64,000 bases of DNA from Candidatus Thorarchaeota archaeon (GTDB lineage: Archaea > Asgardarchaeota > Thorarchaeia > Thorarchaeales > Thorarchaeaceae): positions 22,718-86,717 of the forward strand of contig JBHLQH010000010.1 in assembly GCA_048884965.1 (NCBI GenBank). Direction: 5' to 3'. Within the stretch, counting starts at the first letter, position 1; the number at the start of each line of letters is the position of its first letter. The position numbers were made by a program, and so were the translations under genes. The notes beneath the pieces were generated by a model that was not told where the DNA came from, made no database searches, and was given only the letters and a program-made list of their open reading frames with translations. This document shows, one piece after another, positions 24,403-26,669 of this stretch.

Positions 24403-25548
24403 ATGGATATCATCGGAGTCAGCCTTGTGGTGCTAAGCACGCTTACGAGTTTACTTGCTGCCAGAACATCGTATGAGATGTTCCAAAGATTTGGTACTAC
24501 ATTCTATCGCTATCTAACAATTGCATTATTCTGTTTCACCCTGATGCCACTTGGGTATTTATTCCCTCTTTTCATTCTGGACCCGGATCAAAAACTTGCA
24601 GTCGTAGTTGGAACTCTTTCTCTAAATGTATGGGCCTATGGGGGTCTCTCGTGCCTTGTAGCTGGAGTGGAGAATCTAAAAGATAGACCCAATACTTTCG
24701 TGGTCGATGTTTCATTCATCCTCGCAGGACTTGTTGTGGCAGGCCAATTCTTGCCAACTTATCAGGAATTTATCTGGAATGGACAAACATGGGAAATCAC
24801 ATTCAAACTGCCGCTCCTGATTCTCTTTGAAATATTTTATGCATATATTGCCATCGCAATCCTCCCTTTCCTCCTTCTCTTATGGTACAGAGTGAAGAGA
24901 GGTGGGAGTTTTGGATACAAAACGAGAATTCTCTATCTAGGCACAATTGTTTCAGTCATATATTCTGCAATCGTTTTAATAATCAATCGCGGGGAATTCT
25001 CAATCAACTCTCTCTTTTTGCATAGCCAATCCTATCTTGCTTTTGCGATTCTTGGGACCATCTTCCTTCGCTTTCTACTAAAGACTAGCCCAACGATTTT
25101 CTTCTCAACCACAGAGGATTTACTATACTTGGGGGTAGTTCGAACTCGAGATAATGAGTCACTTCTGAGCTTTCGATTTCCACGACAGGATCGAGAGGTT
25201 TTATCATATCTTGTGACAGGTGTTCATAGTACTCTGGATTCTATTCTACGAGAAGCAATTCAAAGCTCAGAAGAGCTAAAGAATATTCGAATAGGCAAAG
25301 ATGTGATCACGGTTGTAAAAGGAAAGAGAGTCACTGGTTTTATCATAAGTGATCGGGAAATCGAAATCGTTAGCCCATTACTTGATTTTACTTTGCAATT
25401 GTTCGAGAAGAAATACGGACATGAAATTTTGGCACGACATGATTTCCCTGAATTCAAGATTGAGATAGAAAGTATCTTCCAGTTTGCTCTTCAGAACAAA
25501 GAAGTGCCAAGATGGCTGAACATTCCGGGATTCCTAAGGAGGACATGA
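24403..25548 (+). CDS. 7TM membrane protein fused to a C-terminal longin-like domain (paralogue 1)
   Basis: Seven hydrophobic helices, then P-T-I-F-F, then a soluble domain LLYLGVVR..SLLSFRF..LVTGV..LKNIRIG..ITVVKG..FEKKY..DFPEF..IESIF. Confidence 0.65.
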   Translation: MDIIGVSLVVLSTLTSLLAARTSYEMFQRFGTTFYRYLTIALFCFTLMPLGYLFPLFILDPDQKLAVVVGTLSLNVWAYGGLSCLVAGVENLKDRPNTFVVDVSFILAGLVVAGQFLPTYQEFIWNGQTWEITFKLPLLILFEIFYAYIAIAILPFLLLLWYRVKRGGSFGYKTRILYLGTIVSVIYSAIVLIINRGEFSINSLFLHSQSYLAFAILGTIFLRFLLKTSPTIFFSTTEDLLYLGVVRTRDNESLLSFRFPRQDREVLSYLVTGVHSTLDSILREAIQSSEELKNIRIGKDVITVVKGKRVTGFIISDREIEIVSPLLDFTLQLFEKKYGHEILARHDFPEFKIEIESIFQFALQNKEVPRWLNIPGFLRRT

Positions 25549-26669
25549 GAATGGTAGAAGTCATAACGATTGTAGCACAGTCTATAGTGGCCATTTGTGC
25601 ATTCCTTGCATTTCATCATAATTTCAAGCAGTACAGGAAAATTGGCACTAGGTTCTTCCTTTACATCTCAACTGCATACCTCGCGTTCTTTGGCTGGTCA
25701 CTAGGATATCTCACTTTGAGTATTTTGTTAGAACTTCAGAATTATCTTCTCATCCGTGAGATCACTGCACTCTCGAATAGCTTAAGCTGGCTCTTTGTAG
25801 CTTTCCTCATAGCTTCAACAGAGTATGCCAAGAAGAATCCAAATAGAGTATTAATAGAGTCGCTCTTCCTCATTGCAGGTTTGGGGGTTGTCTTCTATTT
25901 CGAGAATACCTATTTCATAGTAGAGTGGGCAGACTCAATGATGTTCTATATCGAAGCGTTTCCTATTGCAATTATCCGCCTCGCATTTATCACGCTAGGG
26001 GCAATCATCATCATTCCAGTATTCATTGGCATCTTCAAGATGTTCAAGAAGAATCCTACAAGATTCAATATGGCACGAAAAATGCTTCTAACTTTAATGA
26101 TATCTGGAATATCATCTATCGCTACACTGGTTGTGGCTCAGTCGAATAGTGAGAACTGGCTGCTCTACATAATTTCAGCTATCATGGCATGCATCTTCTT
26201 GGTAACATCTGTTTGGATCTTAGAGAACCATCCTACCTTATTCCTTGCCGCTCGACACGATTTAGTAGAGCTAATCATCGTGGTAAAGAATACAGGGCTT
26301 CCTCTTTACTCGTTCAGCTTTGAGAAGAACGAATTACCGATCAATCCAGAAATAGTGTCTGCTTTTGTTACAAGTGCTGGACACGCGCTTCAGCAAGCAG
26401 TGAGCTCTAAATCTCATTTGGAAAGGTTCCATTTCGGAGAGTCTGAAGCCATTATCTCAGAGGGATTCTTTGTGTATGGTATCATTCTATCTCGTTCTAG
26501 CTCTGACCTCTTGAATTCATTATTGAAAATAGTGATTAACGAGTTCGAGTCAGTGTATTGGTTCAAGATTTCAGATAGCATCAATGTATCTGATTTTTCA
26601 GGTTTCGATCCTGTGATTCAAAAACTCTTCGAATTTGATGTGCCAAATACCATTTCTACATTTGTGTAA
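25545..26669 (+). CDS. 7TM membrane protein fused to a C-terminal longin-like domain (paralogue 2)
   Basis: Seven TMs, HPTLF, then ELIIVVKNTGLPLYSFSF..IVSAFVTS..LERFHFG..EFESVY..DFSGFDPVIQKLF. ATGA overlap with the paralogue 1 stop and a GGAGG RBS. Confidence 0.75.
   Translation: MRMVEVITIVAQSIVAICAFLAFHHNFKQYRKIGTRFFLYISTAYLAFFGWSLGYLTLSILLELQNYLLIREITALSNSLSWLFVAFLIASTEYAKKNPNRVLIESLFLIAGLGVVFYFENTYFIVEWADSMMFYIEAFPIAIIRLAFITLGAIIIIPVFIGIFKMFKKNPTRFNMARKMLLTLMISGISSIATLVVAQSNSENWLLYIISAIMACIFLVTSVWILENHPTLFLAARHDLVELIIVVKNTGLPLYSFSFEKNELPINPEIVSAFVTSAGHALQQAVSSKSHLERFHFGESEAIISEGFFVYGIILSRSSSDLLNSLLKIVINEFESVYWFKISDSINVSDFSGFDPVIQKLFEFDVPNTISTFV

Follow-up and report, generated by a model that had tools for sequence, protein, structure and literature searches.

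In the genome of a Candidatus Thorarchaeota archaeon (GenBank assembly GCA_048884965.1), two neighbouring genes appear to encode membrane proteins in which a bundle of seven transmembrane (TM) helices is followed by a C-terminal longin domain, and the question that they raise is what such a pair of seven-helix (7TM) longin proteins does at the membrane. The genes occupy positions 24403 to 26669 of the stretch of DNA that was analysed (the window: 64,000 nucleotides of contig JBHLQH010000010.1, positions 22,718 to 86,717 of the forward strand; coordinates refer to it unless a contig or locus is named). The initial annotation of this DNA had read them as a heterodimer of the receptor and guanine nucleotide exchange factor (GEF) type. 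The answer that we favour, tentatively and as a possibility that falls somewhat short of probable, is that they form an Asgard-specific membrane protein pair whose longin heterodimer docks a cytoplasmic partner, a small GTPase being the leading candidate.

Two co-directional open reading frames (ORFs) lie on the + strand, the first at 24403-25548 (P0001, 381 aa) and the second in a frame that is open from 25512 to 26669. The ATGA overlap that had been described between them is present in the sequence at 25545-25548, although the second gene has two candidate starts, ATG 25545 (374 aa) and ATG 25551 (372 aa). A GGAGG at 25538-25542 stands 2 nt ahead of the former and 8 nt ahead of the latter, a 99% identical public relative is annotated from the 25551-type start, and no longer N-terminus is seen in the aligned homologues. 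The second gene was analysed in its 374-aa form (P0002). With either ATG as the start, the two genes are tightly coupled, by a 4-nt overlap in the one case and across a 2-nt gap in the other, and a single operon is the best explanation of the two genes. The features on which the argument depends are as follows.

24361-24369, + strand: TATA-like TTATTTTAT, about 38 nt 5' of the first ATG, a candidate archaeal promoter of the pair (read from the sequence)
24403-25548, + strand: upstream gene, P0001, 381 aa, with a 7TM bundle, a Pro-Thr hinge and a C-terminal longin domain (ORF; upstream-copy clade in the tree)
24403-25089, + strand: predicted 7TM region of P0001, aa 1-229 (hydropathy; Lys/Arg-rich loops 1, 3 and 5; helix-for-helix alignment with P0002)
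25090-25095, + strand: invariant Pro230-Thr231 hinge of P0001, at the cytoplasmic end of TM7 (alignment columns)
25114-25497, + strand: predicted longin domain of P0001, about aa 238-365, with approximate boundaries (alignment to the modelled P0002 domain)
25536-25543, + strand: Shine-Dalgarno-like AAGGAGGA in the last part of gene 1, preceding the gene 2 start (sequence)
25545-26669, + strand: downstream gene, P0002, with a 7TM bundle, a Pro-Thr hinge and a longin domain (ORF, homologues and full-length model; downstream-copy clade in the tree)
25545-26228, + strand: predicted 7TM region of P0002, aa 1-228, shaped like a G-protein-coupled receptor (GPCR) (model helices, VIA-align)
25914-25955, + strand: predicted beta-hairpin in the outside loop between TM4 and TM5, P0002 aa 124-137 (DSSP strands 124-129 and 132-137)
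26232-26237, + strand: invariant Pro230-Thr231 hinge of P0002 (alignments)
26262-26627, + strand: predicted longin domain of P0002, aa 240-361, in the order b1 b2 a1 b3 b4 b5 a2 a3 (models, Foldseek, VIA-align)

That the two proteins are divergent paralogues, as the initial annotation had proposed, is borne out by BLASTP, which aligns them across their full length at 25% identity (E 6e-20). P0001, P0002 and their tails alone have no relevant Pfam or NCBIfam family; the sole family match, NMN_transporter, is weak and under its cut-off, and was set aside. P0001 has 29 representatives at 50% clustering, and the vicinity of P0002 holds 4 clusters at 90% identity. In the 44 Asgard loci that were read (40 fetched loci, the window, two contigs and the second copy of the pair in the same genome), we found 58 full-length proteins of 353-395 aa with the 7TM-longin layout. 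They come from 11 GTDB families, and such a spread, together with the 29 representatives, is far beyond chance. A profile of 24 members matches 346 of 400 Asgard genomes at E<=1e-5, many of these matches covering the tail alone, which occurs in other architectures too. Whether the ESM Atlas is searched by features or by shape, all the neighbours are Asgard clusters that bear the name 'hypothetical', at a TM-score of 0.73-0.74 over about 347 residues. A protein of 1591 aa with nine matched stretches (P0031) proved to be a false positive, a STAND NTPase with WD40 repeats, and P0024 and P0033 have no Pfam family. No published description of a 7TM-longin fusion was found in a search that left subscription journals largely out of reach, and a prior listing in a table is possible; the supplementary tables of Liu et al. 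are said to contain 130 roadblock/longin asCOGs.

Seven TM helices per protein had been claimed as well. In P0002, they are seen in the full-length AlphaFold2 model (pLDDT 86.6, pTM 0.85, with a 24-row alignment as input), where the helices span residues 3-33, 36-60, 64-95, 101-119, 139-169, 175-200 and 205-228; in P0001, they are predicted by hydropathy and by the alignment to P0002. The Pro-Thr hinge that was said to follow TM7 in both is equally secure, in that Pro230 and Thr231 are invariant across 24 homologues, and a short helix comes after them in the P0002 model. Among the 58 members, the mean count of Lys+Arg is 9.2 for the loops that follow TM1, TM3 and TM5 and 1.1 for those that follow TM2, TM4 and TM6, and the inside count is higher than the outside count in every member (58/58). 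By the positive-inside rule, the N-terminus is placed outside and the longin domains, judged from the sequences, are on the cytoplasmic side. A longin domain that faces the outside of the cell had been named beforehand as refuting the receptor reading, and these loop counts rule against it.

In its predicted shape, the bundle resembles the GPCRs. When the full-length model was compared by VIA-align with 48,161 PDB representatives, the listed top 50 matches for residues 1-231 were nearly all GPCRs of several classes; GPR3 leads (9lyc_A; Z 15.3, root-mean-square deviation (rmsd) 3.8 over 222 aa) and the fiftieth entry has Z 12.6, although helical bundles attain about Z 14 from their arrangement alone, without kinship. 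Classes A, B2, C, D and F are represented (Z 15.3-12.6, rmsd 3.5-4.6 over about 210-230 aa, with two rows omitted that also run into the longin part), and also among the top 50 are alkaline ceramidase (ACER3, a 7TM lipid hydrolase, Z 12.9) and one designed GPCR-like fold. Foldseek returns GPCR matches at E 0.009-0.03. The likeness extends from the seven helices to the N-out/C-in topology, the short helix after TM7 and the outside hairpin between TM4 and TM5, in which Trp residues are conserved in the Thor clade (WxxxxW consensus). In contrast to this likeness of shape, no 7tm family of Pfam is matched at E<=10, the DRY, CWxP and NPxxY motifs are not found, and the output would be a fused longin domain and not a heterotrimeric G protein. 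The alignment of the Thor clade does contain ExxKxxP where TM3 ends on the cytoplasmic side and HPTxF where TM7 ends, which are the places of DRY and NPxxY in class A; this may be called a positional resemblance and is no evidence of kinship. The description as GPCR-like, given at the outset, thus holds for shape and topology and fails for sequence family and motifs; on the strength of the model, we call the domain GPCR-shaped and not a GPCR. A kinship with the window's two multi-TM kinase-like receptors was also considered and was discarded (hhalign probability 0.4% and 1.6%).

The longin pattern that had been noticed at the C-terminus was followed up on the models of P0002, and both Foldseek and VIA-align return longins; the longin fold of the tail is in this sense well supported by the predicted structures. 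The tail-alone and full-length models alike have the order b-b-a-b-b-b-a-a in a three-layer a/b/a sandwich (DSSP on two independent models, with the residues of the tail alone: strands 15-22 and 28-33, helix 43-62, strands 69-72, 75-81 and 85-91, helices 96-116 and 123-136). Foldseek against the PDB gives 34 matches at E<=1e-3 for the tail, nearly all of them longins, which include Fuzzy, zeta-COP, Mon1, Ccz1, AP sigma, AP mu-N, Sec22b, TRAPP Bet5, sedlin and VAMP7; the E values are 4e-5 to 1e-3 for Fuzzy, Mon1-Ccz1, zeta-COP, AP sigma, Sec22b and TRAPP, with Mon1/Ccz1 at 7e-5 to 9e-5. When the Foldseek candidates were aligned to the tail by VIA-align, Sec22b came first (1ifq_B; Z 14.0, rmsd 2.6 over 126 of 128 residues), and the best 50 entries were all longin domains (Z 14.0 to 10.2). 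With the full-length model, Fuzzy (7q3d_C) reached Z 13.8 (rmsd 2.8 over 123 aa) and TRAPP (3cue_C) Z 13.2 (rmsd 2.4 over 121 aa).

A roadblock domain would begin with a long N-terminal helix ahead of its first strand pair and would have at most one C-terminal helix. In the tail, the helix before b1 has only 6-7 residues, and two C-terminal helices stand after b5, which is longin-like. Roadblock chains (MglB, LAMTOR, p14/MP1) appear only at Foldseek ranks 45-50, and Robl_LC7 has no Pfam match in P0001, P0002 or the 24 domains of the alignment. As for longin families, P0001 and P0002 match none in Pfam at E<=10, and the nearest link in sequence is Fuz_longin_1, at 15.8 bits (cut-off 26.1) in one distant relative (L071). 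In profile scans of the whole genome, the pair is not among the matches of Fuz_longin_1, and Sybindin has no match anywhere; a sequence profile search of the PDB with the alignment of the tail gives chance-level matches only (E >= 0.03).

Judged from gene order and from the tree, the two genes are ancient paralogues that are inherited side by side. The tandem pair recurs in four further contigs with unrelated neighbours, namely, a Thorarchaeota contig from a metagenome-assembled genome (380 + 371 aa), a Logan contig (382 + 371 aa), and two JGI contigs (383 aa and a truncated next gene; 378 + 374 aa). The same genome carries a second tandem pair of 378 + 367 aa (C36:14658-16881; L014:8653-10882, minus strand), which has peptidase M24 to one side of it and DsrE/TusA, cysteine desulfurase and NifU to the other. 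It also has a third, single 7TM-longin gene on contig C3 (L084:8261-9511, minus strand; 416 aa, about 70 of them in an N-terminal extension); genes for MsrA, an MFS transporter and a kinase-like protein of the APH type lie around it. When the family is placed in a maximum-likelihood tree, the Thor clade divides into upstream copies and downstream copies, two groups that are reciprocally monophyletic (95/90 and 98/94) and whose subtrees are mirrored, with the same internal order. In other words, the pair was duplicated whole after its two copies had diverged. The Lokiarchaeia-type clade has a separate upstream/downstream split of its own, and 25 of the 58 sampled members are single-copy genes that form a separate clade. 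The junctions of the Thor clade range from an 11-nt overlap to adjacency without overlap, and the Loki-type pairs have gaps of 120-210 nt. This pattern of inheritance is what would be expected of an obligate heterodimer that was derived from a homodimer.

A complex prediction for the two longin tails gave a score of 0.60, versus 0.01 for the best of three controls; the contacts agree to at least 96% between the runs, and the partner pLDDT is at least 73. The mark set for such predictions is reached by 58 of 80 solved complexes and by 2 of 110 mismatched pairs, and just 7 of those 80, together with both of the passing mismatches, score 0.60 or less. Since longin heterodimers have already been solved, the pass may reflect memorised structures. 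The model thus lends weak support to a predicted longin heterodimer. Of the heterodimer that had been suggested earlier, what fits best is the conserved, co-inherited unit of two genes; the complex model of the tails adds little to it.

How might such a pair work? By sequence and models, each protein is a seven-helix bundle with its N-terminus outside and its C-terminus inside, which leads through the Pro-Thr hinge into a cytoplasmic longin domain. The two longin domains would then pair as a heterodimeric platform that lies flat on the inner face of the membrane, held there by the two 7TM bundles. The 7TM part, the sequence of which is poorly conserved in the wider family, would sense something in or beyond the membrane and set the state of the platform, and the platform would dock a cytoplasmic partner that is encoded elsewhere. 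One of the many small GTPases of this genome that have no lipid anchor is the leading candidate for the partner, because longin pairs dock small GTPases in TRAPP, Mon1-Ccz1 and CPLANE. It has been reported that the geometry in which small GTPases are bound by longin and roadblock dimers is conserved (PMC10933270), and that the prenylation machinery for GTPases is absent from Asgard genomes (PMC4917890). The role of the platform could be that of a tether, a GEF or a GTPase-activating protein.

Several observations weigh against this proposal. The fold is called from predicted structures, and the pLDDT of the tail-alone model is 74.8; none of the 24 domains matches a longin family of Pfam (Longin, Sybindin, Sedlin_N, Fuz_longin_1, Clat_adaptor_s) at E<=1; and the complex model cannot separate heterodimers from homodimers. 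Within the TM part of the wider family, nothing is conserved at the level of at least 70% save one Gly, so neither a ligand site nor an activation switch can be named. Longins also have roles that involve no GTPase, as in SNAREs and coat subunits, and are kin to PAS/GAF-like modules (PMC4917890). The gene context is poor in GTPases as well. None is encoded within about four genes at any of the three 7TM-longin loci of the genome (3/3), and among the 40 fetched loci, which were scanned for P-loop motifs with subsequent confirmation of the candidates by Pfam, one has a GTPase-like neighbour. This is a 229-aa P-loop protein (L077:8110-8799, minus strand; Arf 20.5 bits, cut-off 22.3), the gene of which lies immediately 5' of a lone 7TM-longin gene; the sister genome (L078) does not share this neighbour. 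With a context of this kind, no partner can be named from it.

If no GTPase is involved, the longin tails would be dimerisation, ligand-binding or adaptor modules of the PAS/GAF-like kind, the 7TM part would be a transporter, a lipid-handling protein or a scaffold, and the tails would regulate it, or it would recruit some other cytoplasmic protein. We regard this as doubtful, though to be taken seriously. It would account for the GTPase-free neighbourhood of 39 of the 40 sampled loci and of all three loci in the genome, where the genes nearby are instead metabolic or unrelated ones that vary with the subfamily (2-hydroxyacid dehydrogenase; Fe-S and sulfur-transfer genes; an RDD protein together with a methylase). 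The occurrence of the same longin type in fusions with TPR and winged-helix domains, the place of ACER3 among the structural matches (Z 12.9) and the caution that longins are part of a broad sensory-fold group (PMC4917890) point the same way. On the other hand, the TM part is without the conserved polar or metal-binding residues that an enzyme or transporter would need, and the closest solved folds of the tail are the longins of GTPase platforms, coats and SNAREs rather than PAS/GAF domains. That the two genes are merely tandem duplicates, whose products act independently as monomers or homodimers, as the single-copy relatives presumably do, is distinctly unlikely in our estimation. The single genes, with 25 of the 58 members and a clade to themselves, favour it, the tandem pairs of the Thor and Loki clades seem to go back to separate duplications, and the dimer model is blind to the distinction. 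The copies have, however, been kept together, in the same order and in tight coupling, across genera and while the whole pair was duplicated at least once more, as the mirrored trees show, and an identity of 25% between them speaks of an old duplication of which both copies were kept.

A bolder form of the docking pair that we prefer would be an Asgard receptor class, in which a GPCR-shaped heterodimer uses its membrane-bound longin platform to recruit a small GTPase without a lipid anchor directly and to switch it upon a signal sensed by the 7TM part. It seems unlikely to us; if true, it would mean a one-step pathway from receptor to G protein that is older than the eukaryotes, and it would explain how Asgard GTPases gain access to membranes. 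Very improbable is the reading with which the initial annotation began, a receptor-GEF heterodimer that relays an outside signal to a roadblock-GTPase cluster about 11 kb downstream. Such a cluster exists (Robl_LC7 gene at 37537-37941, Arf-like GTPase gene at 37970-38659), and the predicted cytoplasmic side of the longin domain is compatible with the reading. The argument for a receptor-GEF that would feed it is solely one of analogy, eukaryotic longin pairs being GEF cores. But no fewer than eight genes lie between the cluster and the pair; they are found on both strands, and an ABC transporter and a histidine-kinase-like receptor are among their products. The cluster already has three roadblock proteins of its own, and orthologous pairs on two contigs have no roadblock or GTPase gene within 6 kb. 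The cluster is real, but its link to the pair is not supported.

Among the known systems, the eukaryotic longin-heterodimer platforms (the TRAPP core Bet5-Trs23, Mon1-Ccz1, Fuzzy-Inturned of CPLANE, and BLOC-3) are like the proposed docking pair in consisting of two paralogous longins. The likeness to the TRAPP/Mon1-Ccz1 type includes the match of the fold over the whole domain and a longin-longin model that passes its controls weakly. Whereas those complexes are soluble and peripheral, the Asgard longin is the tail of a 7TM protein; unlike TRAPP and Fuzzy, the Asgard tails have no Pfam match to Sybindin or Fuz_longin_1; and the Asgard operon is without an extra longin, TRAPPC3 or other subunits of the TRAPP type, and without a cognate GTPase by gene linkage. 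The longin SNAREs (Sec22b, Ykt6, VAMP7) also have a longin domain on a membrane-anchored protein, and Sec22b is the best structural match. A SNARE, however, has an N-terminal longin, a SNARE coiled coil and one C-terminal TM helix, whereas the Asgard order is reversed, with the seven TM helices first and no coiled coil. In the signal recognition particle (SRP) receptor, the SRX domain of SR-alpha is a longin fold that docks an Arf-like GTPase, SR-beta, at the membrane (SRX 5ck3_A, Z 10.4 against the tail); there, it is the GTPase that is anchored in the membrane, with a soluble longin protein as its partner, while in the Asgard pair, the longin protein itself would be in the membrane. The prokaryotic receptors 7TMR-DISM and HisKA_7TM share with the pair the direct fusion of a polytopic sensor to a cytoplasmic module, and one ESM Atlas cluster near P0002 is automatically named 'Histidine kinase N-terminal 7TM region', but the Asgard 7TM region has no Pfam match to these families. 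To our knowledge, longin is not among the outputs described for either of them.

The interest of the pair lies in a wider problem. Asgard genomes have many Ras-superfamily GTPases, as well as longin and roadblock proteins, and no machinery for the lipid anchoring of GTPases (PMC4917890; PMC10933270). How their GTPases meet membranes is an open question for the origin of eukaryotic trafficking, and a conserved membrane pair with predicted cytoplasmic longin tails is a concrete, expressible candidate for that role. The debate on the origin of GPCR-like folds, too, gains from it a receptor-shaped 7TM family that is confined to the Asgard archaea. The value of the present locus is limited for now, with no partner emerging from its context, and loci with an adjacent GTPase are better starting points.

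The surroundings of the pair are partly conserved. Window positions 17858-30513 show partial synteny with the contig of a 68% identical orthologue (P0004), and the shared genes are MscL, DUF998, the pair itself, an Rce1-like CAAX protease and an SBP_bac_5 protein, with no signalling genes among them. It should be mentioned that the Rce1-like protease is found near the pair in both, though this lineage is said to be without prenylation. The synteny of the second pair on contig C36 recurs in a JGI contig (L003). Neighbours vary by subfamily, a 2-hydroxyacid dehydrogenase accompanying one single-copy group and a methylase with an RDD protein accompanying the Loki-type pairs. In three Thorarchaeota relatives (L047-L049), a D-2-hydroxyacid dehydrogenase gene (identified by Pfam in one of them) comes next after the single-copy gene of 354-377 aa, in the same orientation. 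The neighbourhood is also conserved at the Loki-type pairs (366 + 375 aa; L061-L066, L080, L081 and L083), with an Eco57I/N6-methylase-like protein of 620-640 aa encoded divergently upstream and a zinc-ribbon and RDD membrane protein of 185-200 aa encoded directly downstream.

The same type of longin occurs in other architectures, fused to TPR and winged-helix domains in the same genome and to V4R domains in clusters of the Asgard Atlas, and such fusions suggest a portable docking module. In the same genome, soluble proteins with this longin sequence type are encoded at loci L008-L013 (contigs C1, C5, C13 and C53). They include a 617-aa TPR protein with a C-terminal longin, a 430-aa protein in which an N-terminal longin (weak Fuz_longin_1 match, 18.2 bits) is followed by winged-helix domains, and several others of 215-409 aa without a Pfam family. 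One GTDB family (f11; L020-L039, e.g., L020:670-2364) has proteins of about 565 aa with the longin type in the middle of the chain, at about aa 272-400, and with a deviant Walker-A-like CGKKT near the N-terminus, where CbiA/MinD/ParA is matched weakly (17.4 bits, under the cut-off); they may be fusions of an NTPase and a longin. A search for this longin type fused to a GTPase yielded nothing usable, only the weak MinD/ParA-like N-terminus of proteins of about 567 aa from one family.

Lastly, a minor observation concerns the 5' side of the operon. A DUF3795 gene is encoded on the minus strand (window 23813-24379), and its longest ORF begins at a TTG that is only 23 nt from the first ATG of the pair. 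The Pfam match to DUF3795 starts at residue 47, so the real start of this gene is probably further in. A shorter ORF would probably leave space for a shared divergent promoter region, including the TTATTTTAT at 24361-24369 that may serve as the promoter of the pair.

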